A DNA stretch of 32,000 nucleotides from Thaumarchaeota archaeon CSP1-1 (GTDB taxonomy: Archaea > Thermoproteota > Nitrososphaeria > Nitrososphaerales > Nitrosopumilaceae): positions 87,387 to 119,386 of the forward strand of contig LDXL01000006.1 in NCBI GenBank assembly GCA_001443365.1, read 5' to 3'. The notes under the pieces were generated by a model, which saw only the letters and a program-made list of their open reading frames with translations, had not been told where the DNA came from and did not search any database. This document shows positions 2,343 to 30,599 of this stretch, one piece after another. The translations under genes and the position numbers were made by a program. Numbering within the stretch: the first letter of the stretch is position 1; each line of letters begins with the position of its first letter.

Positions 2343-5300
2343 ATGCAGTTAGAAAAACAATTTGACTCAAAAAAAATTGAAAAAGAAATCAAAGATTATC
2401 TCTCAAATATCGATTTACACAAAATGATCTTTGAATCTTCGGAAAAAATTCATAAAATTATGTTCATTGAAGGGCCACCAACAATGAATGGAATTCCACA
2501 TGCAGGACATCTTAGAGGCCGAGTGATAAAGGATCTATGGTATCGATACATGACATTAAAAGGAAACAAGGTCGTATTCAATGCAGGGTGGGACACACAA
2601 GGACTTCCTATTGAGCTTCAGGCTGAAAAAGAATTAGGCGTATCAGGTGGAAAAACTGAAATCATAAAATCAATTGGAATTGAAAAGTTAGTTTCTGAAT
2701 GTAAAAAATTGGTTCAAAAATATAATGCAAAATGGGTTGAAGCTGATAACCTTCTTGGAATGTCATTTAACCAAAAAGATGCCTATTGGACTTTTAGAGA
2801 TGATTTTATTGAAAGGGAGTGGCAATTTCTTAGAAAAGCACATGAAAATGGCATTTTAGAAGAAGACTATACAGTAATTGCATACTGCCCAAGTTGCCAA
2901 ACTTCGTTGAGTCATGCAGAAGTAAATCAAGGATATGATATGGTAAAAGATCCATCCCTTTACTACAAGGTAAAGCTACAAGATGAAAATATTTTCTTAA
3001 TTGTATGGACAACAATGCCATTCACTCTTGTGACTGATGCGATGGTTGGTCTTAATCCTGAAGAAAATTATGTCTTTGTCAAAGTCAACGATGAAACTTG
3101 GATAGTTGGTGAAAAAAGACTAGAAGAATTAATGATTGAGATTAAAGTTGAAAATTATTCCAAACAAAAAACGGTTAAAGGAAAAGATCTTGAAGGCAAG
3201 AGATACATTCACCCACTATTGGGGCAAATTCCAGGACTTGATGAATGTGCTAAGGAATCAAACTATCACATTACAGTAGCTGAAGAATTTGTAGATGCAA
3301 ATACGGGAAGTGGGTTGGTTCATCTATCTCCTGCAAATGGAGAAGAAGACATTAAAATTGCAAACAAAAGAGGCGTTAGAATTTTCAATCCAATTGATGA
3401 TGAAGTCAAATTTAAAAAAGAGGCTGGAAAATACGAGGGTCTATTCGTTAGAGATGCTGATGAAAAAGTTGTAGAAGATCTTAGAGATGCAAATGCCCTA
3501 GTAAAAATTGGTAAAATTAAGCATAAGTATCCATTATGTTGGAGATCCCAGCACAAAATAGTCTGGCTTGCAAGAAAGGGTTGGTTTTACAAGCTTGACA
3601 GACTAGAAGACAAGGCAGTAAATGCAGCTGAAAGTGTAAACTATTTTTTTGACCAACCAAAGAATCGGTTTTTAGGGATTATCAAAGAAAAACATCCATG
3701 GTGTATTTCACGAGAGAGGTTTTGGGGATGCCCTCTTCCAATATGGGATTGCAAAGATTGTGGTAAACAGACCCTATTGTTTTCAAGAAAAGAAATTGTT
3801 GATGCAGCATCAAAACTTCCAGATGGACCAAATTTTGAATTACATAGACCGTGGATTGATAATGTTCTTGTAAAATGTGCAAAGTGTGGAAGTGTTAACA
3901 CTCATAGAGAAGAATACGTTCTTGACACTTGGCACAACAGTGGTTCTGCTCCATATTCCTCATTAACAAATGAAGAATATTCTAGCAGCATACCAGCACC
4001 ATTTCTAACAGAAGGAATAGATCAAACAAGAGGATGGGCTTATACACTATTAATTGAAAATGTAATTTTAAACAATGGACCTGTTCCTCCTTACAAGTCA
4101 TTTTTGTTTCAAGGACACGTTCTTGATAAGAATGGGAATAAAATGAGTAAAAGTTTAGGAAATGTAATTGATGCAAAGGAACTTTTAACAAAATATCCAG
4201 TTGACTTGATCAGATTTTACTTTATGTGGAAATCAAGTCCAATTGAGCCACTTAACTTTAGCACAGAAGAATTAATGTCAAGACCATATCAAGTGCTAAG
4301 TACACTTTACCATTTACACTTGTATTTTAAACAAAATAGTGAATACGATAAGTTTGATGAATCTAAAACGACTATACAATGGGCACAAACAAAAAACTTG
4401 TTGCAATCATCAGATATTTGGTTATTATCAAAACTACAGAAATTGATACAAGATTCTAATGACCTAAATGATAAATGTAAATTTCATGAAGCTGCAAGAG
4501 CGCTGGATGATTTTATCATAAATTCATTAAGCCAAATTTACATTCCAATTACTAGAGGAGAATTATGGGATGAAGAGGAGTCAAAAAAAGATAGGAGGTT
4601 TTCAATCTATGCTGTTTTGCATGAAATTTTAAAAACTCTAGATATTTTGTTACACCCATTATGTCCTTTCACCAGTGAATATCTTTATCAAACTACATTT
4701 GCAAAAAAGAAAAGTATTCTTTTGGATTCCTGGCCAAAAGTTCAAGAGTCATTAATTTCAGAAAACATTGAAGCGTCTTTTGATTTACTAAAAGAGGTAG
4801 TATCTGTTTCTGCTGCAGCTAGAATGAAAGGGAAGCTCAAAAGAAGATGGCCACTAAATGAAGCCCTCATTTGTATTAAAAAAAGTGAAAAAACAAAACT
4901 CGAATCACTTTCAGACCTACTAAAATCTCAGCTAAATGTAGAAAAATATACTATCTTTGAGATTGAAAATTTTGAAGGCCTAAAGCAAATAACTGAGATT
5001 GAGAAACTTAAACTTCCATGGTTACCAAAAATTGAATTAGATAGGAAAAAAATTGGTCCCAAAGCAAAACAACTCATGGGTGCATTATTGAAAAAATTCT
5101 CTGAAACCAATCCCATTGAAATAGTTTCTAGTTTACAAAAAGAGTCAAAATTTACCTTTGATATAGAGGGGAATAAAATTTCCTTAGAAAAGGATGACTT
5201 TGTAATTGATTTTGAAGCAAAAAAGGGATTTGCTGTTGCTAAAAGAGATACGTGTGTGGTGTTTATTTCAACAGAAAGAAATGCCGAAATGATGGCAAGA

Positions 5301-5546
5301 GGTCTAATCAAAGACCTTGCCCGAAGACTCCAGACCCTAAGAAAAGAGCGCGGGTATAATCCTACAGATATTTTGAACAAGGCATCCATACTTGATCTAG
5401 ATCCAGAATCATTAGAGATGGTCACACAAAAAGCACAGGAACTTGCATTCCTGGTGAGGGTAAAAGAGGTAAATTTCAAGGAATCTTGTAAATTGTACAA
5501 AGATGACGATATTGATGGTCAAAAGATAAGGATTTCAGTAGAGTAA
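2343..5546 (+). CDS. ileS: Isoleucyl-tRNA synthetase (archaeal type)
   Basis: 1067 aa class I aaRS with HIGH-type motif (PHAGH), KMSKS, the IleRS-typical GWDTQGLPIE and WCISRERFWGCPLPIW, and Cys clusters (CPSCQ, CKDCG...CAKCG). Confidence 0.9.
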   Translation: MQLEKQFDSKKIEKEIKDYLSNIDLHKMIFESSEKIHKIMFIEGPPTMNGIPHAGHLRGRVIKDLWYRYMTLKGNKVVFNAGWDTQGLPIELQAEKELGVSGGKTEIIKSIGIEKLVSECKKLVQKYNAKWVEADNLLGMSFNQKDAYWTFRDDFIEREWQFLRKAHENGILEEDYTVIAYCPSCQTSLSHAEVNQGYDMVKDPSLYYKVKLQDENIFLIVWTTMPFTLVTDAMVGLNPEENYVFVKVNDETWIVGEKRLEELMIEIKVENYSKQKTVKGKDLEGKRYIHPLLGQIPGLDECAKESNYHITVAEEFVDANTGSGLVHLSPANGEEDIKIANKRGVRIFNPIDDEVKFKKEAGKYEGLFVRDADEKVVEDLRDANALVKIGKIKHKYPLCWRSQHKIVWLARKGWFYKLDRLEDKAVNAAESVNYFFDQPKNRFLGIIKEKHPWCISRERFWGCPLPIWDCKDCGKQTLLFSRKEIVDAASKLPDGPNFELHRPWIDNVLVKCAKCGSVNTHREEYVLDTWHNSGSAPYSSLTNEEYSSSIPAPFLTEGIDQTRGWAYTLLIENVILNNGPVPPYKSFLFQGHVLDKNGNKMSKSLGNVIDAKELLTKYPVDLIRFYFMWKSSPIEPLNFSTEELMSRPYQVLSTLYHLHLYFKQNSEYDKFDESKTTIQWAQTKNLLQSSDIWLLSKLQKLIQDSNDLNDKCKFHEAARALDDFIINSLSQIYIPITRGELWDEEESKKDRRFSIYAVLHEILKTLDILLHPLCPFTSEYLYQTTFAKKKSILLDSWPKVQESLISENIEASFDLLKEVVSVSAAARMKGKLKRRWPLNEALICIKKSEKTKLESLSDLLKSQLNVEKYTIFEIENFEGLKQITEIEKLKLPWLPKIELDRKKIGPKAKQLMGALLKKFSETNPIEIVSSLQKESKFTFDIEGNKISLEKDDFVIDFEAKKGFAVAKRDTCVVFISTERNAEMMARGLIKDLARRLQTLRKERGYNPTDILNKASILDLDPESLEMVTQKAQELAFLVRVKEVNFKESCKLYKDDDIDGQKIRISVE

Positions 5547-5603
5547 TTGGTTAGCTTTTAGCGAATGAGGGATAATAAATAAGAAAATTGCGTAATTGTA
5601 GTA

Positions 5604-5933
5604 TTGGTAAAGCAGATCAGCCTTGACTCATGGCAGATACACCATTTATCAGAATTACTTCAGAAGGGATCACTGGTCGTTGCAAAAACTAACACGCCAA
5701 TAATACTTTATCGCCAAACACTAGAAGAAGAAGACAGTTCTTACGAGGAGATAGTATGTACATTGACAAAGGATTATGTAATTGAGCAGCTGGTAATATC
5801 AGGTGGAGTGCTCCCACCCAGTTTTCATCAGCAATTGGTTTTTACCCTAAGTGAGTTTCCAGATAGACTGCTTAGAAAAAGTCGGGATCTATTCTTACAA
5901 ACCGTTGATCTGCTTGAAGAGAATCTGAAATAA
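5604..5933 (+). CDS. Hypothetical protein (109 aa)
   Basis: Intact ORF with a TTG start. A TATA-like ATAATAAATA (5572-5581) lies about 28 nt upstream. No recognisable motif. Confidence 0.5.
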   Translation: MVKQISLDSWQIHHLSELLQKGSLVVAKTNTPIILYRQTLEEEDSSYEEIVCTLTKDYVIEQLVISGGVLPPSFHQQLVFTLSEFPDRLLRKSRDLFLQTVDLLEENLK

Positions 5934-5942
5934 CCATAACAG

Positions 5943-5950
5943 AATATAAG
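5943..5950 (+). promoter_or_regulatory. TATA-like box upstream of sucC
   Basis: AATATAAG is centred about 27 nt upstream of the ATG at 5973. Confidence 0.45.
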
Positions 5951-5969
5951 GACCAAAACTTGGAATTTT

Positions 5970-7085
5970 TTGATGCGTCTACTAGAGTATCAAGCAAAGC
6001 AATTATTTTCTGAGTTTGGGATAAAGATCCCAAAAGGCTTAACCTCAAAAGATGTTGAACAAGGACGAAAGGACGCAGAAGAATTAGGATTTCCGTTTGT
6101 TATTAAATCACAAGTTCCTGTTGGTGGAAGAGGAAAGGTTGGAGCCATACAAAAGTGTCACAATCAAGATGAATTTAATCTAAAATATCCACAGATCTTA
6201 GAAATGTCTGTCAAAGGGGAAAAAACCAGAGCCATTTTACTTGAAAAGATGGCAGAAATCAAAAAGGAATTGTATCTATCGTTATTTTTGAATAGAGGTA
6301 AACGTTGCTACACCATTATTGCTTCCTCAGAAGGTGGAGTTGAAATTGAATCCGTAAAAAATCAAGTAATACGTGAGGTGGGATTAGGAGATGTTGATAA
6401 ACAAGTAGCAGAAGAAGTGGCTAAAGAAATTGGTCTTAAAGGAAATTCTGTGACTGAATTTGTAGACATGTTGCAAAAACTATCAAGGCTTACAATAGAA
6501 AAAGAGGCAGAGCTTGCAGAGATTAATCCCGTTGCTGTCTTAAATGATGGGTCGTTGATTGCCTTAGATGGCAAAGTCATCACGGATGATAACTCGAACT
6601 TTAGACATGCAGAGCTGGAAAAATTTCAAGAGCGCTCTGAGCTTGAAGAGAGGGCAGAAAAAAGTGGCTTTACATTAATTGAACTTGATGGAAACATTGC
6701 AGTTATTGGAAACGGTGCGGGTCTTGTAATGTCAACTCTCGATATGCTTTCAGATAATGGTGGAAAGGCTGCATGCTTTCTTGATGTTGGTGGTGGTGCA
6801 ACACCTGAATCAGTATATGAAGCGCTTACATTAATTAGCAAAATAAAAAAAGTAAAAGGAATTCTTGTCAATCTCTTTGGAGGAATAGTAAAAACAACAA
6901 CTGTTGCATCTGCATTTATCAAAGCTTATGATGAAAAGCTAATTGACAAACCAGTTTTTGCAAGATTGATGGGAGCTGAATCCGATAAATCAAAAGAGAT
7001 GCTAAAAGAAACTAAGACAAAACTTTTTGATTCTGTTGAAGCAGCAATCAATGCTGCAGTAATGGAGGTTAGAAAGAGTGGCTAA
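5970..7085 (+). CDS. sucC: Succinate-CoA ligase (ADP-forming) beta subunit
   Basis: MRLLEYQAKQLFSEFGI... ATP-grasp N-terminus and a C-terminal CoA-ligase domain (NLFGGIVKTT). The true start is probably the ATG at 5973 rather than the TTG at 5970. Confidence 0.9.
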   Translation: MMRLLEYQAKQLFSEFGIKIPKGLTSKDVEQGRKDAEELGFPFVIKSQVPVGGRGKVGAIQKCHNQDEFNLKYPQILEMSVKGEKTRAILLEKMAEIKKELYLSLFLNRGKRCYTIIASSEGGVEIESVKNQVIREVGLGDVDKQVAEEVAKEIGLKGNSVTEFVDMLQKLSRLTIEKEAELAEINPVAVLNDGSLIALDGKVITDDNSNFRHAELEKFQERSELEERAEKSGFTLIELDGNIAVIGNGAGLVMSTLDMLSDNGGKAACFLDVGGGATPESVYEALTLISKIKKVKGILVNLFGGIVKTTTVASAFIKAYDEKLIDKPVFARLMGAESDKSKEMLKETKTKLFDSVEAAINAAVMEVRKSG

Positions 7086-19149: not shown

Positions 19150-19494
19150 ATGTTGGACTGTAATTATATGGCAATTTCAAAAAACACGAGAGACTTTATT
19201 GACAGTCTAGTCGACTACTACATCAGTGAAGCTCCCTCGTACAAACAAATAGCTGAAGAATACGTTCCTGAAGTAGAATCGGTAGTGGATACAGCATTTG
19301 GTTATATTGCAGGTTGTGTTTACTCTGGATTTTTACAGGCATACAAAAACATGCAGCAGACCCCTAGCCTTGAAGATATTCAGGAATTTAATAAAATTCT
19401 AAAAGATCGAGCGCCTCTGATAAAAAAAGCTATGATTGAAGACTCTTACAATCCAGAGCTTAGAGGAGTAGGCAAAAAGCGCGTTAATCTGTAG
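19150..19494 (+). CDS. Hypothetical protein (114 aa)
   Basis: Intact ORF. An alternative start is the ATG at 19168 (MAISKNT...). No motif recognised. Confidence 0.5.
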   Translation: MLDCNYMAISKNTRDFIDSLVDYYISEAPSYKQIAEEYVPEVESVVDTAFGYIAGCVYSGFLQAYKNMQQTPSLEDIQEFNKILKDRAPLIKKAMIEDSYNPELRGVGKKRVNL

Positions 19495-19508
19495 GAAAAA
19501 TTTTTCCT
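19493..19508. terminator. Perfect 16-bp palindrome AGGAAAAATTTTTCCT spanning both stop codons of convergent genes, possible bidirectional terminator
   Basis: Self-complementary when checked base by base. It presents a T5 run on either strand and includes the TAG of the plus-strand gene (19492-19494) and the TAG of the minus-strand gene (19507-19509). Confidence 0.4.
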
Positions 19509-20664
19509 AATCTAACTTTAGTATGCCCATTCTAACTAAGTGCTCAACGCCATCAAAGAATACTTTGTCACTGATTCTTTTTTCGGACCATAATAGGGCT
19601 CTTGTCTTAAACCAGTTTGGCATTTTTTCTATGTTGGATTCGCTTACTGGATCTTTTAAATTAAATGGAATATAACTTAACAGAGATTGAAATGATTTTT
19701 CTTTATCAGCAATTGGATTAAGATATTGATTCCAATCAATCTCAGTTGGTTTTGAAAGTTCTCGGATCATAAACCCATTTGGAAATTCCAGAGAGAGTTT
19801 AATTTCCTCAGAAGTAGAATTTGTTACAGGATTGACTAAATGCTTGAGAGTATTTTCATAAGCTTTATCATTAATTGTATTTGTTATCCACATTTTTGTC
19901 AAATCCCGTTGAAGATTAATTAATTCAGAATTAGAATTAGTTATTGCGTAATTGATCAAAGTATTACCAATAGCTGGTTCATAAGGTGCTATCATCACAT
20001 AGTTCTTAGTTGAGGAATCAGCTCGAATTATTATTTTAAATTCATTACATTTATCATAATCAAAATTTGTTCCTATACAATTATCATATTGATCCTGTTT
20101 TTCATGAATTTTCATTTTAATATCGGATTTAGAGAAGCCTTTGTAAGATAATACAAAGTGAGAAAGTTCGTGAGATAATATCCAAGAAGGTAATGTCGTT
20201 TCGTAACTAGAAGAGAAATCAGAACAATCACACATCATTAATAGATGGTTAATTGTTCTATCGTTACCTGAATGCACATAAATTCCATCAAGGTTATTAG
20301 GATGTAAAGTTGATTTTCCTAAAGCTTGATCAAAAATTAGTATCAACAAGTTTACATTCTCAGATTTTTGGAAATCCTTGAATTGTGATTCTGAAATACA
20401 ATTCACTGAATAATTATTATTCTCTAATTGGTAAAGCTCAAAGTATTTGGATGTAAGGCTAGCGTAAACTTTATCCATATTATCTTTAGGACCACAAGTA
20501 TCTTTTTTGATATAGAGTAATTGCCATTCTACTGAAGAATCTTCTGCTGCATATGATTTGGTTAAGGTAGGTCCAAGAATTAGGCCCAAAGTAATCATTA
20601 TACTAAAGATTACGTAAATTTTTTCTCCAGGAACAATATTCTTTATTTTATTGACTTTAATCAT
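19507..20664 (-). CDS. Secreted or membrane-anchored protein with an HExxH motif (putative zinc metallopeptidase)
   Basis: N-terminal TM/signal segment (IYVIFSIMITLGLILGPTL). HELSH in LPSWILSHELSHFVL (DNA 20158-20172). The start overlaps the upstream gene by 8 nt. The fold family was not recognised. Confidence 0.55.
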   Translation of the reverse strand: MIKVNKIKNIVPGEKIYVIFSIMITLGLILGPTLTKSYAAEDSSVEWQLLYIKKDTCGPKDNMDKVYASLTSKYFELYQLENNNYSVNCISESQFKDFQKSENVNLLILIFDQALGKSTLHPNNLDGIYVHSGNDRTINHLLMMCDCSDFSSSYETTLPSWILSHELSHFVLSYKGFSKSDIKMKIHEKQDQYDNCIGTNFDYDKCNEFKIIIRADSSTKNYVMIAPYEPAIGNTLINYAITNSNSELINLQRDLTKMWITNTINDKAYENTLKHLVNPVTNSTSEEIKLSLEFPNGFMIRELSKPTEIDWNQYLNPIADKEKSFQSLLSYIPFNLKDPVSESNIEKMPNWFKTRALLWSEKRISDKVFFDGVEHLVRMGILKLD

Positions 20665-21598
20665 CTGAAAACACCAACACTAATTCTGGAATGTGTGACT
20701 GAGCCTCTCTTGATGCAATGTTTATTTGACCTTCTGAATTTTCGTCACTTTTCATTATGATCCATCCGAAATTTTCTTCTGAAGAAAGATAATCTAGAAT
20801 ATCGTCAGTAACATCAAACTTTACCCAGTAACCTTCTACTTGATTTGAAATCCATATTGAATCTGTTGGGTTTTGGTCAAATTTTCCTCCGTTCCACTGA
20901 TTTCTACAGTCATCCGCCTCGGTAGGACAACTCCAAGTTACCCCATCGCTAGGATTCAATAGATTGCTAACTGGAGTACTTATTCCATTACCTTCCTGCC
21001 AGTCAGTTTCAAAGCTGTGTATATTGATAAGCTGCCCGTCTCCCCAATTTTGATTATTACTTTCTATATACAGTTTGAGAGTTGCAGATTCTAGAGTTTT
21101 GCCAGTAGCTACGTTTTGAATATCATCTTGATTGAAAGCTATCAGAGCCCTGTTGTTAGTTGGTCCAGTACCCATAATTCGTAGAACTTGGTTTGAGCCT
21201 TCGTTACTGTTTTGAACACCTTCTCTAATGAAACTATCTTTTTCAGCAAACAATGTAACTTTATTTCCAGATACCTCGGGCTCTTTTACTGGGAGATTCT
21301 TTACAAGTTTAAGATTGGTGAATTCCTCATTTTTTAAAACTTTTTGTGTTTTAGATAACTCCTCTTCCAGTTGAACAAACATGTGATTAGATGTTTCTTT
21401 GGCATCTTTGAAATTACACAAACCATTCTCACAAATGTTAGTTGGAATTGGGGTTACTTCTGTATATGAAAAAATTTCTTGTATTTCTTCATCTAGTATG
21501 AAAAATGATATCGCAGAAAATGTAATGCCCGCAATTACAAGTAAACTTAAAAGAGTTCTTCCGAGAAGCTCGTCTTTAATAATATTATTCGTTTTCAT
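20657..21598 (-). CDS. Secreted protein with a DNRLRE/CBM96-like beta-sandwich domain
   Basis: N-terminal TM anchor. The C-terminal ~200 aa follow the DNRLRE-domain pattern as I recall it: KDSFIREG..N.NEGSNQVLRI......NRALIAFNQ...ATLKLY...W.EG..GVTW....FDVTD...INIASREA...PELVLVF. The start ATG overlaps the S8 gene stop (ATGA). Confidence 0.55.
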   Translation of the reverse strand: MKTNNIIKDELLGRTLLSLLVIAGITFSAISFFILDEEIQEIFSYTEVTPIPTNICENGLCNFKDAKETSNHMFVQLEEELSKTQKVLKNEEFTNLKLVKNLPVKEPEVSGNKVTLFAEKDSFIREGVQNSNEGSNQVLRIMGTGPTNNRALIAFNQDDIQNVATGKTLESATLKLYIESNNQNWGDGQLINIHSFETDWQEGNGISTPVSNLLNPSDGVTWSCPTEADDCRNQWNGGKFDQNPTDSIWISNQVEGYWVKFDVTDDILDYLSSEENFGWIIMKSDENSEGQINIASREAQSHIPELVLVFSDD

Positions 21599-23748
21599 TT
21601 CATAGCCTCCGAGTCATCTATTAGGAAAACTGCACTTGCAGTTCCATAACCCATTGCATAATCATATTCATTTTGTAATGAAAACAGACCAGGTTCTGTA
21701 TTCTGTTGAATTTTAGTCAATAACTGTTCTGGAGACATATTTGGATTATTCTCAAGAATTAATGCAGCCAAGCCAGCAACATAAGGAGTAGTAGCTGATG
21801 TTCCATAGAATGGCTTGCCGTCTAGAGCTAAGGTTGTTACACCATCAGGCCCTACGACATGAGGAGCTAATTTGCCATTATTTGTGGGGCCTTGTGAGCT
21901 ATATGGTTCTAGTATTCCATCTAGGTGGTTTACCGCTCCTACTACTATTGCGCCATTTGCATCTGCTGGAACTGACACACTACTTTGGGTAACAGGATAT
22001 TCAAGTTCATCATTAACAGTAAAAATTTCCAAAGTTGCATGAGGTCTATTGCTAGGTGATATCATATCCCCAGAATACAAGACTCCAAGAGAATAGATAC
22101 CTTCAGTATCTGGAAGATGATAAATATATTCAAAGGGATTGTCTGAACTCTTTTCTTGCTTGTTTGCAGAGAAATCGACTATTTGTCCTAGCGGATTAAC
22201 AAGCACAAGCTCTAAATCAGCAACATCATCTAGACCCACATCCCACATCATATGAGCGATAATTGGCTTTTCTTCTGCGATTCGATCTTCTGTTACTGTA
22301 ATCGACAAGCCTTCATCGGTATTTGAAAAATCATGCCAATTATTGAGGCTGGAATCCACAAAATTTCCTTCCCAATGCTTATTGCCAAAGTTTCCTGCTG
22401 GTACAACAAAAACAATGCCATTTTCAACGGCTTCCTCAATCTTCTTTGTGACATGACTTGTACCATCAGTTGGGAAGTTAGGCCAACCTGCAGACATTGC
22501 TATAATATCTACATTTTTTGATATGGCTTCATCCACAGCTGCTGCAAATTCAATGTCTGATTCCATGGAATACAAAAATAGTTCAACATCTGGAGCAACG
22601 TCAGCTATAATTTCTGCAACTGCGGTTCCATGCAAGGCTTCATCTCCATTTCCTTGTATTGGCAGATATCCTATCCCTTGTCTGAACGATTTGACTTCAA
22701 CGATATTATCTGAAATTTTTTGATTATTTGTAAATGACAAGTCCAACACAGCTACTTTAATCCCTTTACCAGTAATCCCTGCATATTGTGCCAAATCAGC
22801 ATTCATGAAATACACTCCTTCTGACAATGATTCCTCAAATTGTACTGCTGGGAATGGGGGCCTAATGTTTTCAATACCTTGAATTGACCTGAGTTTTGGA
22901 AGGTCACTTAGCTTAATTGTTAGCTGTACCTGTTTGTCATTTTTTGCGTTAATATTACCTAGTGAAGTTAGTTTGTCTAAAACTGCAGCGTCTGTATTTG
23001 TTAATGTTACTACAACTTTTGTTTTCCCATCTTTAAAGTCAAGTCCTAATTTTTTGGCATCTCTTTTAGGATCTTCACTTTTTAAAAGAGCCGAAATTTT
23101 TGAATCAATTTTATGTTTTGAAAGCTCCTCATGAGAAGCCATCTCTTGTTTAATTTTTAATTTAGTTTCTTTTAGTTCTTGTTTGAGTGTTTTTTTGTAC
23201 TCTTTATCATAATCTAGGTTTTCATTTAATTTCTTGATAACATCTTTGATATCAGAAACGAGAGATTTGAGTTTTTGTTTATCTTCCTCATTTAAGATCT
23301 TTTTTAAATCATTGATCTCTTTTTTAATTTCTTTAAGAGCTTGCAGCTTTTCTTTTAATTCATTTTTATTTCGAGTTTCTTCTCTCTGTTTTTTGATTTT
23401 CTCTATTATAGCTCTTTTCTCTTCATCATCATCGTCATTCGATTGACAGGCACCTTTTGTATCACCATGAGCCAAGTGTGCTTCGGTAGCATTTACTGAT
23501 ACCAAAATTTGCTGGAAATTGTTGGGGTTTCCTGGAGGAATGTGACATATTGTAATTTTTTTATCATCATCTTTCTCATCATCTTTCTCATCATCTTTCT
23601 CATCATCTTTCTCATCATCTTTCTCATCATCTTTCTCATCATCTGCAACAGCAAGTGCCGGGTTAAAATTTGCAAATGTGCCCCAGCTTAATAATAACAC
23701 TGATAGAATCACTACCAATGCTCTAGAATTAGCATACGCTGAAACCAT
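21595..23748 (-). CDS. Secreted S8 (subtilisin-family) serine protease with acidic repeat, Cys/His module and coiled-coil N-terminal extension
   Basis: Catalytic triad contexts are VAVLDLSF (Asp), HGTAVAEIIA (His) and GTSATTPYVAGLAAL (Ser), with the oxyanion Asn in VVPAGNFG. A ~150-aa insert lies between Asn and Ser. The N-terminus carries a signal peptide, then (DDEK)x6, ICHIPPGNP...HLAHGD..GAC, a K/E-rich coiled coil and an I9-like propeptide. Confidence 0.9.
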   Translation of the reverse strand: MVSAYANSRALVVILSVLLLSWGTFANFNPALAVADDEKDDEKDDEKDDEKDDEKDDEKDDDKKITICHIPPGNPNNFQQILVSVNATEAHLAHGDTKGACQSNDDDDEEKRAIIEKIKKQREETRNKNELKEKLQALKEIKKEINDLKKILNEEDKQKLKSLVSDIKDVIKKLNENLDYDKEYKKTLKQELKETKLKIKQEMASHEELSKHKIDSKISALLKSEDPKRDAKKLGLDFKDGKTKVVVTLTNTDAAVLDKLTSLGNINAKNDKQVQLTIKLSDLPKLRSIQGIENIRPPFPAVQFEESLSEGVYFMNADLAQYAGITGKGIKVAVLDLSFTNNQKISDNIVEVKSFRQGIGYLPIQGNGDEALHGTAVAEIIADVAPDVELFLYSMESDIEFAAAVDEAISKNVDIIAMSAGWPNFPTDGTSHVTKKIEEAVENGIVFVVPAGNFGNKHWEGNFVDSSLNNWHDFSNTDEGLSITVTEDRIAEEKPIIAHMMWDVGLDDVADLELVLVNPLGQIVDFSANKQEKSSDNPFEYIYHLPDTEGIYSLGVLYSGDMISPSNRPHATLEIFTVNDELEYPVTQSSVSVPADANGAIVVGAVNHLDGILEPYSSQGPTNNGKLAPHVVGPDGVTTLALDGKPFYGTSATTPYVAGLAALILENNPNMSPEQLLTKIQQNTEPGLFSLQNEYDYAMGYGTASAVFLIDDSEAMK
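23566..23637 (-). repeat. Six identical tandem 12-nt units (plus strand ATCATCTTTCTC) encoding (DDEK)6
   Basis: Exact repeats counted at 23566, 23578, 23590, 23602, 23614 and 23626, with partial units on both sides. Confidence 0.95.
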
Positions 23749-23794
23749 TGTTTTTACCTGAATAATTTTACTCCTGAAAACTAGATGACTCTGT

Positions 23795-23814
23795 GTTTGT
23801 AATTGATTACAAAC
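23795..23814. promoter_or_regulatory. Candidate operator: perfect 9+9 bp inverted repeat GTTTGTAAT-TG-ATTACAAAC
   Basis: Located in the 170-bp divergent region between the protease operon start (23748) and the histidine kinase start (23919). Arms verified as exact reverse complements. Confidence 0.45.
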
Positions 23815-23918
23815 TTTTTCTTATATCCCAAAAATACGTTCAAAATATCAGCAATGAAACTAGTATATGGCCTATCAGAGGCAGCTGGAAAAAAATTGTA
23901 CCATGATGGAGGGATTTC

Positions 23919-25448
23919 ATGAGGCTTAAAACAAAGTTTTCTTTAGAAGTACTTCTTTTAATTTCTCTAATTGGGATGGTATCTATTATTGCAGTTTTAA
24001 ATACAAAACAAGTTCAGGATAGTTTTCTTGATTTGAGTATACAGACATTACCAACTTGGGATGCATTAAAGGACATGAGATTAGCCAACTCTCTGATTTT
24101 ATCATCTACTTTGGAAGTATTGATTTTACAAGATGCGATAAACAATCAAGAAGATGAATTTGGAGTATCTGATTATGAAGAACAAATAGAAAATGAAATT
24201 TTTGAAATAGAAACAGCAAAATCATTATTCAGTGAATCTTTTACTCGATATTCTATCCTTATGGAAGAAAATTTCCCAGAATCCAATATTTATGTAGACG
24301 ATATTTCCAAAAATTGGAATGATTTGGTAATAACGTCTAACAAAATGATTAGATTTAATATTAATGGAAATAATGCAAGGGAAGTTTTAGAATTAAAAAA
24401 TGATTTTGAAAATAGTGTGCAATTACTTAATCAAAATATATTTTCTGCAAATAGTTTTATTGAGCCTCAAGTGAAAAGCAGACAAGCAGTTGTGGAATCA
24501 CTTGTTGATAACACCACTACACAGATCTTAATTGTATTAAATATTTTCATTGGAGCATCATTGGCCTTCAAATTTTTTATCACAAAATCAATTTCACGGC
24601 CACTAATCAAACTAAGAAAAACAGCTCATAAAATTGCAGAAGGAGAATTTGTTAAAACAGAAATGAAAGGGGATGATGAAATTTCTGATCTTGGTAAAGA
24701 TATCGATATGATGTCAACTGAACTTCAAAAACTAAACAGGGCACTAGTAACATCTGAAAGACTGTCATCTATTGGTAGTTTATCGAGTCGTTTGGCACAT
24801 GATCTCAGAAATCCACTATCTGTCATCAAAAACTCTATGGAAATATTGAAATTCAGATTAAATGATAACATGGATGAAAACATTAACCATCAAATTGCAA
24901 TGGTTGGAAGAGCAGTTTCTCGCATGTCACACCAAATTGAGGATGTACTTGATTTTGTGAATATAGCCTCATTGAAATTAGAAAATAGTTCACTCATTAC
25001 AGTAATAGAATCTGCTATTCTTAGTACCGACATACCAAAATCTGTTAAGATAAATTTGCCAAAAAATTCTGTTACGATAAGGTGTGATCCATATAGAATG
25101 GAAGTAGTTATCAGTAATTTATTGAAAAATGCCTCACAAGCAATGGAAGGTAAAGGAGAGATTTCAATCAGAGTTTTAGACCAAAAAGAGGATGTTTTGA
25201 TAGAGATTGAAGATCAGGGTCAAGGGATTCCTCAAGAAAACATGGATAAAATATTTGAGCCCTTATTTACTACAAAACAGTCAGGGACGGGTTTGGGATT
25301 AGCAAGCTGTATCAGCATTGTAGAAAAACATGGAGGCAGTATTTCTGTGAAAAATAATCCTACAGTCTTCACTGTACAATTGCCTAAGGTCCCTAAAAAT
25401 GTAAAACTTGAAGAAAAACAAATAGAAAAGCAAATTCCTAACGAATAA
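23919..25448 (+). CDS. Sensor histidine kinase (two TM helices, extracytoplasmic sensor, HAMP, HisKA, HATPase_c)
   Basis: TM1 (residues ~10-27), a ~165-aa outside domain and TM2 (ILIVLNIFIGASLAFKFFI). HAMP (SRPLIKLRKTAHKIAEGEF). H-box SRLAHDLRNPL. N-box LLKNASQA. G-boxes DQGQGIP and GTGLGL. Confidence 0.9.
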   Translation: MRLKTKFSLEVLLLISLIGMVSIIAVLNTKQVQDSFLDLSIQTLPTWDALKDMRLANSLILSSTLEVLILQDAINNQEDEFGVSDYEEQIENEIFEIETAKSLFSESFTRYSILMEENFPESNIYVDDISKNWNDLVITSNKMIRFNINGNNAREVLELKNDFENSVQLLNQNIFSANSFIEPQVKSRQAVVESLVDNTTTQILIVLNIFIGASLAFKFFITKSISRPLIKLRKTAHKIAEGEFVKTEMKGDDEISDLGKDIDMMSTELQKLNRALVTSERLSSIGSLSSRLAHDLRNPLSVIKNSMEILKFRLNDNMDENINHQIAMVGRAVSRMSHQIEDVLDFVNIASLKLENSSLITVIESAILSTDIPKSVKINLPKNSVTIRCDPYRMEVVISNLLKNASQAMEGKGEISIRVLDQKEDVLIEIEDQGQGIPQENMDKIFEPLFTTKQSGTGLGLASCISIVEKHGGSISVKNNPTVFTVQLPKVPKNVKLEEKQIEKQIPNE

Positions 25449-25519: not shown

Positions 25520-26734
25520 ATGGAGAACCAAGAGTTGATCTTGCCTGAAGAAGAAGAGGTCATGCCACTTCTAGCGGATTATGGATTAACAGAAGAAGAG
25601 GCACGAGTGTATGTTGGGGTATTAAGGATTGGCACAGGCAAAGTAAGTGAGATTAGCCATTTTACAAATACTGATAGAGTTAAGGGATACAAAATACTTG
25701 AAAATTTGAGAAGTGAAGGATATGTAACTTCAACTCTTTCATCACCAATTTTATTTTCTGCAAATGATCCTAAAACGACATTTGATACTATCTTAACGAA
25801 GAAAAAATCTGGAATTCAAAGATTAGAAAAAAATCAAGCTCGTTTAATTGAAAATCTAGAAAAGCTAAAAGGACATAGTGTAGTGAGTAACCTTCCTAAA
25901 CTCTCAGTAATTTCAGGAAGAGATAATATCTACAATGAAATAAAAAAAATTATTGATGAGACAAAAGATGAGATGTATTTAGTTACATCAACTTCTGATC
26001 TCATTAGAATGTATTATACAGATATTCCTGCTGCCATAAAAAAAGCACTCAAACGTAAAGTAGAAATTAAATTAATGACGGAGTTTGAAGTTTCTGATAA
26101 AACCGATTGTGTTAAAAATCTAGGATTAAATTATTTTAAAGTTGCAAAATTACCTTCCCAAGGCAGAATAGTTTGCAATTCCTCTCAGATTATCATGTCT
26201 GGCTATACCTCAAAGACCTCAAGAATTCATGCAAGCGATGATTCTGCATTAGTAACTAATTCAGATGAAATTACTAGCAACATGCAAAGCTTATGCAAGT
26301 TTATGTGGAAAATGGGAGGAGAAGTAAAAATTGATAAAAAAGGCACTGTTGAAGGAGAATCTCCTAGAATTAAAACGGGCGTACAAAAAAATGCTACAGC
26401 ATTAGTTGTCGATGATGATCCAGATACAGTAGAGATGTTTTCAGATTATTTAGAAAATAAAGGAGTTAATGTAATAGGTAAGGCAAAGGATGGAAAAGAA
26501 GGTTTTGAACTATACAAGAAATTAAAACCAGATGTAATATTTTTGGATGTAATTATGCCAAATTATGATGGATTTTATACGTTAAAGAAGATTAGAGAAA
26601 TAGATGCTGATGCAAAGATTATCATGGTGACTGCTGATTTTTCTCCAACAACTAAGAAAAAGCTAAAGGAATTAAAAGCAACTGATATTATTTACAAGCC
26701 CTACGATGGAAGGGCAATTGATAGAGTAATTTAG
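25520..26734 (+). CDS. Hybrid regulator: N-terminal TrmB-type winged HTH, TrmB-like middle domain and C-terminal receiver (REC) domain
   Basis: HTH: GLTEEEARVYVGVLRIGTGKVSEISHFTNTDRVKGYKILENLRSEGYV. Middle: VISGRDNIYNEIKKIIDETKDEMYLVTS...RKVEIKLMTE. REC: VVDDDPD, phospho-acceptor context VIFLDVIMP, MVTAD and IYKP. Confidence 0.85.
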   Translation: MENQELILPEEEEVMPLLADYGLTEEEARVYVGVLRIGTGKVSEISHFTNTDRVKGYKILENLRSEGYVTSTLSSPILFSANDPKTTFDTILTKKKSGIQRLEKNQARLIENLEKLKGHSVVSNLPKLSVISGRDNIYNEIKKIIDETKDEMYLVTSTSDLIRMYYTDIPAAIKKALKRKVEIKLMTEFEVSDKTDCVKNLGLNYFKVAKLPSQGRIVCNSSQIIMSGYTSKTSRIHASDDSALVTNSDEITSNMQSLCKFMWKMGGEVKIDKKGTVEGESPRIKTGVQKNATALVVDDDPDTVEMFSDYLENKGVNVIGKAKDGKEGFELYKKLKPDVIFLDVIMPNYDGFYTLKKIREIDADAKIIMVTADFSPTTKKKLKELKATDIIYKPYDGRAIDRVI

Positions 26735-26777: not shown

Positions 26778-27416
26778 TTAGGATTTAGAGCCTAATGAGG
26801 ATACTATAACATCAATAGCATCAGATAATTTTTTGATATCATGCTCTCTGCCTAGGCGATGTATTTCTTCTTTGATAATTTTTAGGGCGGTAGTATTATT
26901 TACTATATCAAAAACATTCGTTCCGCGATAGGGAGTTTCTTTGAGATTCTGACGCACTTCTTCTATTTGGAATTCTTGTTGTTCTAGCTCTTTTTCTGCT
27001 AATGTGCACTCGTACTCTAACTTTTGAAGCTTTGATTTTGTATTTCGCTTTCCTAGTAATAATTGATCAAGGATAGTTGTAACTGATTTGATATCCATTG
27101 TATTAAGAGAATTTTTATCAAGATTAATTTTTTCTAATTTTTGAGATTGTAACATTGCAATTTCTTGGTCAAATCTTTTATGTAATTCCTGTATATGATT
27201 AATTTGTTCTTGATGTTTATCGATTTTCATATTAACATATTTTATGTATTGACCTGTGTTTCCAGCTGCATCTAATGCCCAACGAATTGCATTCTTTGCA
27301 GCCAAATAACCTGATTTTGTTTCTTTTTCTCTTTGTTGTAATCGATCAGTAAACGTTACCGATTCTGCATCATTTAAATGAAATCCTAATGTTACAGATC
27401 TGTCTCCAACATCCAT
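26778..27416 (-). CDS. Coiled-coil hypothetical protein (212 aa as listed, possibly longer at the N-terminus)
   Basis: Long heptad-like K/E/Q-rich stretches. The frame stays open 37 codons upstream of the ATG without any ATG/GTG/TTG (see findings). Confidence 0.55.
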   Translation of the reverse strand: MDVGDRSVTLGFHLNDAESVTFTDRLQQREKETKSGYLAAKNAIRWALDAAGNTGQYIKYVNMKIDKHQEQINHIQELHKRFDQEIAMLQSQKLEKINLDKNSLNTMDIKSVTTILDQLLLGKRNTKSKLQKLEYECTLAEKELEQQEFQIEEVRQNLKETPYRGTNVFDIVNNTTALKIIKEEIHRLGREHDIKKLSDAIDVIVSSLGSKS

Positions 27417-27552
27417 TACGTCTTTTACTTCAACAGTTTTACCAATCTCTGCAATATAGCTAGATTCGTCTTTAGAAATTATTCTGTCTTCTTTACGATT
27501 AATATATTTACGAACCAGAAGATTACCTAGGCATTAGAACTTAAATCAAAAT

Positions 27553-27572
27553 GTATGTAAATTATTACAAAC
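27553..27572. promoter_or_regulatory. Second, imperfect copy of the inverted-repeat motif (GTATGTAAA-TT-ATTACAAAC)
   Basis: 17 of 20 positions are identical to 23795-23814, counted by hand. Lies in the divergent gap between genes 26778-27416 (minus) and 27651-27998 (plus), overlapping a minus-strand TATA-like TAATAATTTA. Confidence 0.35.
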
Positions 27573-27650: not shown

Positions 27651-27998
27651 ATGAGAATCAAGAGAAATTTGTTCATGACAGAAGTTACCGAATATCGAAT
27701 ACAGCAAATTGTTGATAATGGTCAGATAGTACAAATGACTCTAGCAGAAGATGTCCTCACAGAACCAGTCTCTCAAAAACAAATGATAATGGATTCTGTG
27801 GCAAAGAAATTGGATCCTGAAATAAAAGAACAGGTAACGCCCTTATTAGAGGCAATACTTCAAGCCCAACCTACAATCCAGATAAAGAGTTACCAACATA
27901 CTTCAATCACCATTACGATGCCAAAAAGCAGATACGAACGAATGGGTAGGCCACAAGTTGGCGAAAAACTGGAAATCAATATTAGAAAAATTTCCTAA
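27651..27998 (+). CDS. Hypothetical protein (115 aa)
   Basis: Intact ORF. An alternative start is the ATG at 27675 (MTEVTEY...). No motif recognised. Confidence 0.5.
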
Positions 27999-30025
27999 AG
28001 TTGTTTTTCTATCTCTGAAATAGATTCAAGTGGCAAGGAGCAAGTAAAGTCCTTACAAACAAAAACAATTGTTTTATCATAATTGAATTCTTTTCCTGCA
28101 AAGAAAGGAATCTTTGCAAGATTTTTTATTTGGTTTTCATCTCTTACGGTTACAAGAATGGATTCAGGAAGAAACATCCCTGTCAAATATTTGGAGATTT
28201 CAGTATTTTTGGGATTTAGGATAGTTATCTCAAGCGGTTTTTGTAAATACATGTAAATTGTATTTAGAAGATATCCAAAACCAAATGGGTTTTCAGCTGC
28301 CATCGTAGCTTGGGATTCCATCACAGCCAAGGAAACTTCTAAGAACTTTTTTTCTTGCGTTAAATGATAGAGACGTAAAAGAGAGTAAGCTGCAACTGAA
28401 TTTCCTGATGGCATAGAAAGATCATAATTGCTTTTGGGTCTAATTATCAACTTTTCATGAGTATTATCTGTCATGAAGAAGTTTTTTTGGGTGGGATCCC
28501 AGAAATGGTCAATTAAATAATTCCCAAAAGTTTGAGCGGTTTCAAGATATTTTGATTTAGGATTAATTTCAAAGATGTCTAATAGTGCACTGATAAAATA
28601 TGAGTAATCTTCAAGGTATGCCTGAATCTTGGAGGTACCATTTTTGTAGGTACGTAAAAGTTTGCCATTTTTAACTAGATGATTTTCTATAAACGAAATA
28701 CATTTCTCTGCAGCGCTCAGAAAGGATTGTTCGTTAGATACCCTAAATCCTTTAGCTAGAGCACTAATCATTAATGCATTCCATGATGTTAAGATCTTGT
28801 CATCTAATCCTGGGGGAATTCTCTTGGTTCGTACATCTAGAAGCTTTTTGATACAAGAGTCCAGGATATTTTTGACTTGATCTTCTGTTTTGCCAAATTT
28901 GAAGGCTACAGAGGATAGAGAAATATTGTTACACAAAATGGTTTTGCCTTCAAAATTACCACCATCTGTCACATCATAAAATAGGCAAAATACATCAGCG
29001 TCATTACCTAAAATTTCTTGAATTTCACTTTTATTCCATACATAGTATTTCCCTTCTTCTCCTTCTGAATCAGCATCTTGCGCAGAATAAAATCCACCCT
29101 CGGTTGAAGTCATTTCCTCTAATACATAGTTCAAAGTTTTTGTTACAACCTCAAGATAGAATGGATCTTTTGTAATTTGGTATGCTTCTGTATATACAAC
29201 AGGAATCAATGCATTATCATAGAGCATTTTTTCAAAATGTGGAACTAACCACCTGGAATCAGTTGAGTATCGATGAAAGCCTCCACGCAATTGATCAAAA
29301 ATGCCTCCTTGCGCCATTTTTCTTAATGTTTTTAATGCAAACTCTTGGAATTTTGAAATTCCAGACAGTTTAGAATATCTTAGCATAAAAGAAAGATTTG
29401 CAGAATTTGGAAATTTAGGGGCGCTTCCAAAACCTCCGTGTATAGGATCACCTAATTGCATTAGATTTATCGCAGCTTCATCGAGAATAGATTTGTCAAG
29501 ATGCTCAAAAGTACTTACAGATTCTGTTTTTTGAAGATTTGTTAAAAAATTTTCTGCTGTCTTAAGAATATCTTGTGGTTTTTCTTTCCAAGATTGAGCA
29601 AGTTGTCTAAGCAGACTTCCAAATCCAGGTCGTCCATATGAATCCAAAATTGGAAAATAGGTTCCAACATAGAATGGTTTTTGATCAGGTGTGAGAAATA
29701 CACTTAGCGGCCAACCACCTTGTCCAGTTGCTATCTGACAAACCTTTTGATAAATATCATCAATGTCTGGTCGTTCCTCCCTGTCAACTTTGATATTAAT
29801 AAAATTCTCATTCATAATTTTAGCAATTTCGCTATTTTCAAAAGATTCATGAGCCATAACATGGCACCAATGACAGGAGCTATAACCAATACTCAAAAAG
29901 ATAGGCTTGTGTTCTTCTGTTGCTTTTTTTAGAGCAGGTTCATTCCAAGTGTACCATTGTACTGGATTTTTTGCGTGTTGTAAAAGATAAGGACTGGTTT
30001 CGTGAATAAGACTATTTTCAGGCAT
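27995..30025 (-). CDS. Thioredoxin-domain protein of the DUF255/YyaL (SPATA20-like) family with a six-hairpin glycosidase-like domain
   Basis: 676 aa. The N-terminus [52 protein letters not shown] is the hallmark of this family. Confidence 0.9.
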
Positions 30026-30161
30026 AAAATTCGTTATAGTGAATATCTATTTGTAGTTACTTGCCAGAGGTTTAGTGAGCAATACAAAAATAATCAGAGA
30101 TTCTGATGGAGGTTCAAAATTTTCATTAAATGTGTGTTGTAAATAACAAACAACAAAAGAA

Positions 30162-30599
30162 ATGTTACGAAGTATATACTATAGTGAGGTCAAAAAATTG
30201 CCTATTAACATATTGATAGCAGAAGATGAAGAAGACATTGCTGAGCAATACCGTATGGGATTTGAAGATAGAGGCCATAAGGTGAAAGTTACCCACAATG
30301 GCGTTGAATGTATCAATGAATATCGTAGAGCTCGTCAATCACTTGGTGAAAAAGAACCTCTAATTTATGATGTAATAATAATTGATCATAACATGCCCTT
30401 AAAGGATGGAGCAATGTTGGCTGAAGAAATTCGAGAAATAAATCCCGAACAGATTATAGTCTTTGCAACTGCTTATGGAAACCAGCTGATAATGGGTTTA
30501 GAAAAATTTGAAGATGTGGATATTGTTACTAAACCTCTATCCATAACAAATTTAATACAAATGGTAGAAGATAGGCACTACAAGACAGTTGAAGCTTAA
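30162..30599 (+). CDS. Stand-alone response regulator receiver protein (CheY-like)
   Basis: ILIAEDEED acidic pocket, phospho-acceptor context VIIIDHNMPLKDG, FATAYG and VTKP. No output domain. Confidence 0.85.
   Translation: MLRSIYYSEVKKLPINILIAEDEEDIAEQYRMGFEDRGHKVKVTHNGVECINEYRRARQSLGEKEPLIYDVIIIDHNMPLKDGAMLAEEIREINPEQIIVFATAYGNQLIMGLEKFEDVDIVTKPLSITNLIQMVEDRHYKTVEA

Follow-up and report, generated by a model that had tools for sequence, protein, structure and literature searches.

How does a bacterial-type two-component system reach promoters that are built for an archaeal transcription machinery? The question is raised by a 32,000-nucleotide stretch of Thaumarchaeota archaeon CSP1-1 (family Nitrosopumilaceae; contig LDXL01000006.1, positions 87,387 to 119,386), the whole of which is called the window in the following. 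Here, a sensor histidine kinase and a response regulator are encoded divergently from an operon for secreted proteases, and a perfect inverted repeat, termed site 1, lies in the gap between them. The route of archaeal two-component systems to the promoter is largely unknown, and DNA-binding response regulators are rare in archaea. A first-pass annotation had proposed the repeat as a candidate operator of the two-component system. This proposal is supported by conservation, by recurrence at promoters and by the presence of the half-sites together with the regulator family in other genera. On the strength of these sequence comparisons we consider it likely that the palindrome is the operator of the adjacent system, the regulator of which combines TrmBL2-like and receiver parts, and that it serves as a bidirectional activator site.

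23795 to 23814, no strand: site 1, perfect palindrome and candidate operator, arms invariant in 13 orthologous loci, spacer variable
23919 to 25448, plus strand: sensor histidine kinase with two membrane helices enclosing an outside loop, then HAMP, HisKA and HATPase_c domains (Pfam)
25520 to 26734, plus strand: response regulator and candidate binder, with a TrmB winged helix, a TrmBL2-like body and a C-terminal receiver
19507 to 23748, minus strand: presumed target operon of three overlapping genes, gene order kept in loci L021, L026 and L153

A conserved palindrome between divergent operons

Site 1 reads GTTTGTAATTGATTACAAAC and consists of the arms GTTTGTAAT (23795-23803) and ATTACAAAC (23806-23814), which are 100% complementary and separated by the 2-nt spacer TG. 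It sits inside the 170-bp gap that separates the S8-protease operon on the minus strand from the divergent kinase/regulator operon on the plus strand, 47-66 nt from the ATG of the S8 protease gene (23748, minus) and 105-124 nt from that of the kinase gene (23919). The sequence check agrees with the first-pass annotation in all these particulars, i.e., the exact 9+9 repeat with its 2-nt spacer, both distances, the width of the gap and the position between divergent transcription units, and Pfam bears out its naming of an S8 protease, a kinase and a TrmB-helix-turn-helix (HTH)/receiver protein as neighbours. The perfection of the repeat, however, carries no weight. When arms of 9 nt or more and spacers of at most 10 nt are counted, the window contains three perfect inverted repeats, against 2.95 expected from Markov-1 simulations, 56% of which reach three. 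As this is the chance rate, the perfect palindrome was dropped as evidence and the case was built on conservation and recurrence.

Orthologous loci were gathered from genomes and metagenomes, and 13 of them span the site 1 region. All 18 arm positions are invariant in these loci, compared with 19 of the 146 other intergenic columns (Fisher p = 4e-14), and identity of the flanks to the window drops to 0.44-0.52. The spacer takes four forms (TG, GA, TA and CG), to which a duplicated copy adds CC. Invariant arms around a free centre are the pattern expected from a symmetric dimer reading two half-sites. Absence of the repeat at orthologous loci, which the first-pass annotation had named as evidence against an operator, is thus not observed; the repeat is kept in all 13. 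A TATA box inside the palindrome was considered as well and rejected, since the centre varies and includes CC and CG.

MnTg01-like genomes have undergone a duplication of the promoter block. Both copies retain the arms (18 of 18 positions in L024, 17 of 18 in L078 and L094), and the spacer and the adjacent linker have changed. The copies lie at 2380-2399 and 4066-4085 in L024, at 3962 and 5645 in L094, and at 885 and 2430 in L078. The same genomes have a gene for a 525-amino acid (aa) secreted NHL-repeat protein inserted between the protease and kinase genes. The C-terminus of this protein is homologous to the protease pro-region, and every secreted-protein gene has its own operator/promoter copy.

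Recurrence of the motif in the window and in other genera

Two further sites resemble site 1 in the window:

27553 to 27572, no strand: site 2, imperfect palindromic copy GTATGTAAAT-TATTACAAAC, conserved in all orthologous loci
30132 to 30151, no strand: site 3, GTGTGTTGTAAATAACAAAC, outer hexamers in register with sites 1 and 2, inner bases different

Site 2 (GTATGTAAATTATTACAAAC), to which the earlier annotation had also pointed, proved real and conserved, with the consensus GT[AG]TGT[AT]A...T[TG]ACA[AT]AC over the orthologous loci. In site 3, 18 of the 20 columns are invariant in all 11 loci aligned, and the surrounding DNA is unconserved. The core GTNTGT-N8-ACANAC is matched exactly three times in the window, with an expectation of 0.02, a comparison that overstates the significance because the pattern was chosen after seeing the sites; when one mismatch was allowed, no further match appeared in the window. 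All three core matches lie in conserved intergenic blocks no more than 7 kb from the kinase/regulator genes, and the three positions recur in every orthologous locus and also in a syntenic one whose regulator is 74% identical. A motif of similar frequency in coding sequence genome-wide was another outcome that the first-pass annotation had named as evidence against an operator. The exact motif is absent from coding sequence in the window and has 0 matches in a control set of thaumarchaeal DNA (119 kb) taken from around unrelated receiver genes.

Two other blocks in the window deserve mention. An imperfect relative of the motif (CTTTGTAAGATAATACAAAG, 20139-20158, 2+2 mismatches) lies inside the gene for a 385-aa protein in the protease operon and is conserved in L021 and L026, probably because it is coding. 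The block ATATCTATTTGTAnTTAC (30043-30060) upstream of a DsbH-like gene (27995-30025, minus) is invariant in all 11 loci and contains a half-site-like TACAAAT beside the TATA box of that gene.

In a first protein search with the regulator, which is 100% identical to that of CSP1-1 in the database, all relatives listed were at least 86% identical, and an exhaustive representative search added one further full-length cluster. A second search found the family in Nitrosopumilus and Nitrosarchaeum at 50-65% identity, including the cultured N. zosterae (orthologue NZNM25_02740), and the notion of a genus-restricted protein was rejected on account of these homologues. Their genes are flanked by the same half-sites with a 3-nt spacer, GTnTGTAAT-N3-ATTACAnAC. 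The six loci beyond the close-orthologue set (L148-L153, 93 kb) contain eight exact matches. Sites next to the homologue genes are located at the following positions:

L148 (N. zosterae), 3651 and 6226: upstream of a CBM96 gene and of a gene for an 810-aa protein in the kinase operon
L150, 251 and 4435: upstream of the kinase operon and of a downstream gene
L151, 2442, 2493 and 5456: the first two between a gene for a 590-aa protein and the kinase gene, the third before a gene for a 389-aa protein
L152, 7506: upstream of an orphan regulator gene

A variant with 7 nt between the outer hexamers is present on the regulator-gene promoters of L148, L149 and L152. The control DNA yielded a single match with two mismatches, which led to three Nitrosotalea loci (L007, L008 and L009). 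There, a receiver-only gene has upstream of it both a related palindrome, GTTTGTCTA-ATC-TTGACACAC, and a TATA-like hexamer. The receiver is 50% identical to that of the window regulator, and its gene is divergent from one for a stand-alone 290-aa TrmB-like protein that aligns with regulator residues 7-263 (E = 3e-18). A 210-aa protein without family assignment is encoded between the two (L009 about 4149-6405). By its sequences, the arrangement looks like a split version of the fused regulator. Archaellum or pilus genes (FlaI/FlaJ-like) are located downstream.

A metagenome scan with GTTTGTAA-N4-TTACAAAC returned at least 120 matches. Among the matches listed, five are orthologous loci and the rest are unrelated bacterial operators, Bacteroidota-like repeats and a phage-like locus. 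Dominated by unrelated sequences, the scan gives no information on a wider regulon. L031, L039, L045, L052, L054 and about 25 other metagenome loci belong to an unrelated bacterial promoter family with the same outer motif. Its layout (TTGACA, 1-3 nt, GTTTGTAAGTGGTTACAAAC, about 10 nt, AAGGAG, ATGAGTGTTCC) is that of an operator of the repressor type, with the -35 box on one side and the ribosome-binding site on the other, and the hosts have 42-52% GC. The Bacteroidota-like contigs carry tandem GTTTACAAAC repeats. The sequence GTTTGTAATTTTTTACAAAC stands at the 3' end of an NAD-ligase-like gene (L072 8676-8695; also L049, L058, L088, L125 and L145); it is part of a conserved element with about 32% GC on contigs >200 kb, has neighbouring genes that look phage-like and is unrelated to the archaeal sites.

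Candidate regulator, promoter geometry and rival explanations

The regulator is the sole recognisable DNA-binding protein encoded in the cluster. Its residues 18-85 match Pfam TrmB (E = 2.6e-12, 46.8 bits versus a cut-off of 25.6) and residues 290-404 the receiver family PF00072 (1.6e-24), while the match to the TrmB regulator domain PF11495 is weak and below the cut-off (E = 4e-4). An AlphaFold model (pLDDT 79) predicts a winged helix, a long helix, an alpha/beta body, a flexible linker and a CheY-like receiver. Model residues 1-270 match TrmBL2 (5bpd, 5box; E = 4e-14, about 265 columns) and TrmB (3qph, 2e-9), and the C-terminus gives fold matches to CheY and Spo0A. The C-terminal sugar-binding subdomain of TrmB proper and TrmBL1 is absent from the regulator, and the receiver stands in its place. 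In the model, the protein thus resembles TrmBL2, which also lacks the sugar-binding subdomain, with an added receiver. The motifs VVDDD, FLDVIMP, MVTAD and YKP, which comprise the acidic pocket, the phospho-acceptor Asp, Thr and Lys, are invariant across 23 homologues. The kinase in turn has HisKA (9e-10) and HATPase_c (2e-24) domains and the H-box AHDLRNPL, so that the pair shows the hallmarks of a two-component system: H-box and ATPase domain in the kinase, and phospho-acceptor Asp, T and K in the receiver.

Genes in the window typically have the first base of a TATA-like element 25-34 nt before the start codon, which points to leaderless or short-leader transcripts. A bacterial sigma-70 scan was set aside as irrelevant for an archaeal host. 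When 23 site orientations were aligned on the repeat end, positions +7, +9, +10 and +12 proved 91-96% A/T, compared with about 65% elsewhere. This signal corresponds to a TATA-like hexamer (W-n-W-W-n-W) after a 6-nt linker, an arrangement shown by nearly every site. The elements concerned at sites 1 and 2, together with a small open reading frame (ORF) ahead of the kinase gene, are:

23821 to 23826, plus strand: TATA-like hexamer TTATAT, presumed core promoter of the micro-ORF/kinase/regulator operon, TwAwAT in all loci
23783 to 23788, minus strand: TATA-like hexamer TCATCT (AGATGA on the plus strand), weak, 6 nt from site 1 on the protease side, where the S8 operon presumably has its core promoter
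27541 to 27546, minus strand: TATA-like hexamer ATTTAA, 6 nt from site 2 and 28 nt before the conserved CTG at 27518
23854 to 23922, plus strand: micro-ORF of 22 codons, the stop of which overlaps the kinase start (ATGA)

The hexamers at 23783-23788 and 23821-23826 flank site 1 symmetrically and are 32 nt apart. On the plus side the order is repeat-TTTTTC-TTATAT with 27 nt to the micro-ORF ATG, the hexamer starting 33 nt before this ATG; on the protease side the hexamer takes the forms TCATCT, TCATGT, TGATGT and TGAATA across the loci. Site 2 has the order repeat-ATTTTG-ATTTAA with 22 nt to the conserved CTG, and the CBM96 gene of N. zosterae the order repeat-AAGTCT-ATACTA with 23 nt to the ATG. 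The promoters of the S8 protease gene and of the stand-alone receiver gene behind site 3 share identical spacings (repeat, 6 nt, hexamer, 22 nt, (C/G)AGGT at +35 to +39, 7 nt, start), with 46 nt from the repeat, and 56.5 nt from its centre, to the start codon. A hexamer preceded by a site is likewise found before the kinase operon of L150 and L151, and L148, L149 and L152 have one on the promoter of the regulator gene. In position, the element agrees with the operators of the TrmB family, being a promoter palindrome 6 nt from TATA-like hexamers.

The succession of repeat, 6 nt and TATA-like hexamer on both sides favours activation of both operons over simple repression of the protease genes. 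In the mechanism that we propose, the membrane kinase (23919-25448) would sense an outside signal and phosphorylate the regulator (25520-26734), a predicted TrmBL2-like winged-helix body fused to a receiver domain. A regulator dimer would read the two GTnTGTAAT half-sites, the centres of which are 11 bp apart, and, bound 6 bp upstream of the TATA-like hexamer, would most likely help TBP/TFB to assemble on weak core promoters. At site 1, where hexamers lie 6 bp away on both sides, one dimer could drive the protease operon as well as its own operon (positive autoregulation). The weaker copies at 27553 and 30132 would add the coiled-coil and stand-alone receiver genes to a small local regulon.

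In principle, the same protein on the same site may also act with the opposite sign. As a repressor, the regulator would cover the B recognition element (BRE) or block recruitment of RNA polymerase, a reading that we regard as rather unlikely although it has precedents: malE is repressed by TrmB bound at BRE/TATA, and for TrmBL1 and Tgr repression goes with a site over the start (PMC4158304). A block of polymerase recruitment would result if the protease promoter used TTATAT backwards, with the palindrome then at about -16 to +4. The minus-strand sequence GATATAAG lies upstream of the palindrome at a distance of 6 nt, and with the usual spacing of TATA and start, transcription would begin at about 23795-23802. 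The AGGT/GAGGT ribosome-binding sites before the S8 and receiver starts would suit the resulting leaders of 45-50 nt. The comparison of sites argues otherwise. Over the 23 site orientations the conserved TATA-like signal is downstream of the repeat at a fixed distance of 6 nt, whereas no consistent TATA is present upstream. In addition, the start codon follows 35-38 nt past the repeat at the single-gene sites (L148 3651 and 6226, L152 7506), so that TATA and start can fit only on its downstream side.

A second possibility is that the operator is genuine but belongs to a different transcription factor, either a protein of the cluster that has escaped recognition or a global regulator, in which case the link to the two-component system would be one of co-regulation. 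The 253-aa and 107-aa neighbours have no family assignment, and neither has the 210-aa protein of Nitrosotalea. The 253-aa and 107-aa proteins gave no significant family match, the only weak ones being HTH_Cmi2_C (0.17) and Arcadin_1 (0.002), respectively, and both were rejected as alternative DNA-binding proteins on this ground. Moreover, the motif stays with the TrmB/receiver gene although the surrounding genes change from locus to locus (L148-L153), also where the 253-aa and 107-aa genes are missing. L149 and L152 have no kinase gene near the regulator gene, and the variant site is nevertheless present on the promoter of the latter. The recognition-helix variants TDRV[KR]GY and I[DEN]RVRTY track the site variants on the regulator promoter, in two groups only. 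We therefore hold a different factor to be improbable.

More improbable still is an RNA hairpin in a 5' leader, or a terminator, instead of a DNA site. When transcribed, the repeat can form an 8-bp stem of -6.2 to -6.5 kcal/mol (z = -2.7 to -3.9), and TTTTTCTT follows on the plus strand. However, the stem is weak and A/U-rich, no transcript arrives from upstream on the plus strand, and site 3 carries the motif yet does not fold (z = 0.01). The arms are simply invariant, without compensatory changes, and the three sites in the window share outer hexamers at fixed spacing but no common stem pairing. No terminator-like site was called. With a stem of only -6.5 kcal/mol, no covariation, an unfolded site 3 and no terminator call, the intrinsic terminator or hairpin was rejected. 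Finally, a functionless chance palindrome in A/T-rich intergenic DNA, for which only the expected number of perfect 9+9 repeats speaks, can practically be dismissed in view of the invariance over 13 loci with saturated flanks, the retention after duplication and the recurrence at three promoters and in other genera.

Several points weigh against the regulator-operator assignment or against activation and should be kept in mind. The protease-side (TCATCT) and receiver-side (AGAAAT) hexamers are poor TATA boxes. With a linker of only 6 bp, a bound dimer might cover BRE and repress instead, and if the plus-side TATA were read backwards, transcription of the protease genes would begin inside the palindrome, a repressor position. 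That one protein should read spacings of 7, 8 and 9 is not self-evident, and site 3 differs from sites 1 and 2 in the inner half-site bases. Several genes near the regulator are without recognisable function. The claim of a local regulon and the estimate of specificity are based on about 250 kb of sequence.

Activation by the two-component regulator from site 1 can be cast in a more specific form. A single symmetric, phosphorylation-controlled dimer on one palindrome would recruit TBP/TFB to two weak divergent promoters placed in mirror image, the spacing of 7, 8 or 9 nt would have co-evolved with the regulator, and the Nitrosotalea circuit would be a split one. We put this forward tentatively and would sooner expect it to need revision than to hold in every part. 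If true, a two-component system of the bacterial type would be coupled directly to eukaryote-like transcription machinery in an ammonia-oxidising archaeon, and secreted proteases would be switched on together with the system's own synthesis.

Presumed target genes and relation to known systems

The genes presumed to be controlled from the three sites are:

21595 to 23748, minus strand: S8 protease, Pfam Peptidase_S8 (subtilase)
20657 to 21598, minus strand: CBM96 protein, second gene of the protease operon
19507 to 20664, minus strand: 385-aa protein with a HELSH motif, third gene of the protease operon
26778 to 27518, minus strand: coiled-coil protein, presumed target of site 2, called with 227-259 aa in related loci
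30198 to 30599, plus strand: stand-alone receiver, presumed target of site 3, TTG start (ATG in relatives) with GAGGT 7 nt upstream

In the protease operon the genes overlap by 4 and 8 nt. Among relatives, the S8 protease has a length of 717 to 1129 aa, and some have HemolysinCabind repeats. Directly after its signal peptide, seven tandem 12-nt units (23548-23656) encode (DEKD)n. The 385-aa protein is membrane-anchored and has, besides HELSH (HExxH), a weak match to Peptidase_M91 (E = 0.022), and is possibly a zinc metalloprotease. Over the stop codons of the convergent genes 19150-19494 (plus) and 19507-20664 (minus) extends a perfect 18-bp palindrome, TAGGAAAAATTTTTCCTA (19492-19509). It has a T5 run on both strands and is plausibly a bidirectional archaeal terminator.

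The coiled-coil protein has no Pfam or NCBIfam match. Its gene as called (26778-27416) is preceded by a 34-codon N-terminal extension (LVRKYINRKEDRIISKDESSYIAEIGK..., 27417-27518, minus), which is conserved at the protein level with synonymous changes. The extension has no in-frame ATG, GTG or TTG in the window and in L001, L004 and L005, only the conserved CTG at 27518; in L002 it has an in-frame ATG. Two mechanical ORF starts lack conservation, 30162 of the receiver gene and 27651 of the 107-aa gene, and 30198 and 27675 were adopted instead. The ATG of the 107-aa gene at 27675 has GATAAAT about 30 nt upstream.

The micro-ORF ATG is positioned 39-40 nt past the repeat in 10 of the 13 loci; in MnTg01-like loci a TTG follows one nt later. 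The frame is open for 21-24 codons, and the peptide is partly conserved in one subclade (M-x-[WR]-L-D-[KGN]...). Micro-ORFs are also present ahead of the kinase gene in L150, L151 and L148. Probably, the micro-ORF is a leaderless first cistron that couples translation of the kinase. In MnTg01-like loci (L024 4208-4222; L078; L094) the kinase start position is occupied by CTG (CTGAGGCTTAAAACC), in other loci by ATG or TTG. The micro-ORF stop still overlaps the kinase CTG in L078 and L094, and in L024 the micro-ORF is shortened by an early TGA. The kinase of these genomes may use a non-canonical start or re-initiation after the micro-ORF.

Ammonia-oxidising archaea are major players in the global nitrogen cycle. 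The presumed targets, secreted proteases and carbohydrate-binding proteins, hint at on-demand sensing and degradation of external polymers, which would bear on the debate over organic nitrogen use by these archaea. Site 1 offers a concrete, conserved and testable pair of cis-element and predicted regulator. The control region is compact (44 bp from hexamer to hexamer, with the palindrome in the middle and 6 nt on either side of it) and suited to in vitro transcription, and the cultured N. zosterae carries the same system. In the papers that it covered, our literature search found neither a description of the motif nor an operator for a thaumarchaeal response regulator nor a regulator-operator pair for ammonia-oxidising archaea.

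Among known systems, the TrmB family offers the obvious comparison. Its sites are palindromes that activate when upstream of BRE/TATA and repress when downstream or over the start; described operators are TACT-N3-AGTA for TrmB, the TGM TATCAC-N5-GTGATA for TrmBL1/Tgr and TACT-N7-8-GAGTA for Halobacterium TrmB (PMC4158304). Site 1 is likewise a palindrome for a dimeric winged-helix TrmB-family protein, here the predicted binder, and autoregulation is common in the family. The sequence GTnTGTAAT-N2/3-ATTACAnAC differs from every described TrmB motif, and the regulator has a receiver instead of the sugar-binding C-terminal subdomain, so that control would be exerted by phosphorylation and not by sugars. 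The host also differs from those of known TrmB systems in being a thaumarchaeon; thaumarchaeal TrmB proteins were uncharacterised according to a 2014 review of TrmB.

The symmetric layout recalls GvpE, the activator sequence of which is common to the divergent haloarchaeal PA and PD gas-vesicle promoters, 35 nt apart (PMC2241852). There, an element of roughly 20 nt is centred between divergent promoters next to each BRE, and the distance to BRE is critical; the presumed core promoters at site 1 would be arranged alike, with TATA-like hexamers 32 nt apart and the palindrome exactly midway. In contrast to the regulator described here, GvpE is leucine-zipper-like and stands outside TrmB and two-component systems, and its two sequences overlap without forming a single perfect palindrome. 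Archaeal activators act from sites that directly adjoin the BRE of a weak core promoter, as exemplified by the palindrome TCTG-N5-CAGA of Pyrococcus furiosus TFB-RF1 just upstream of a weak BRE (PMC5937170). TFB-RF1 and Ptr2 (M. jannaschii) have sites directly upstream of BRE/TATA, the position presumed for site 1, and their activation works through recruitment of TFB or TBP. They differ from the present system in protein family, motif and signal, and their mechanism was established by in vitro transcription, whereas ours is deduced from geometry.

In domain order, the regulator resembles FilR1 (winged HTH (wHTH)-DUF1724-receiver, Methanosaeta) and LtrR (HTH-receiver, Methanococcoides), which also combine an N-terminal HTH and a C-terminal receiver with a kinase nearby (PMC5847659, PMC4823666). 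As in the FilR1 system with FilR2, a stand-alone receiver gene is presumably part of the same system. The DNA-binding and middle domains are TrmB/TrmBL2-like, unlike those of FilR1 and LtrR, and the lineage differs. A 2018 census of 16 thaumarchaeal genomes recorded 224 response regulators, a single one of them DNA-binding, and the wHTH-receiver architecture was reported only in haloarchaea and Methanosarcina (PMC5847659). Judged by these comparisons, the predicted element belongs to a known type, in which a palindrome serves a winged-helix dimer as operator at a two-component locus, here one that presumably controls its own expression.

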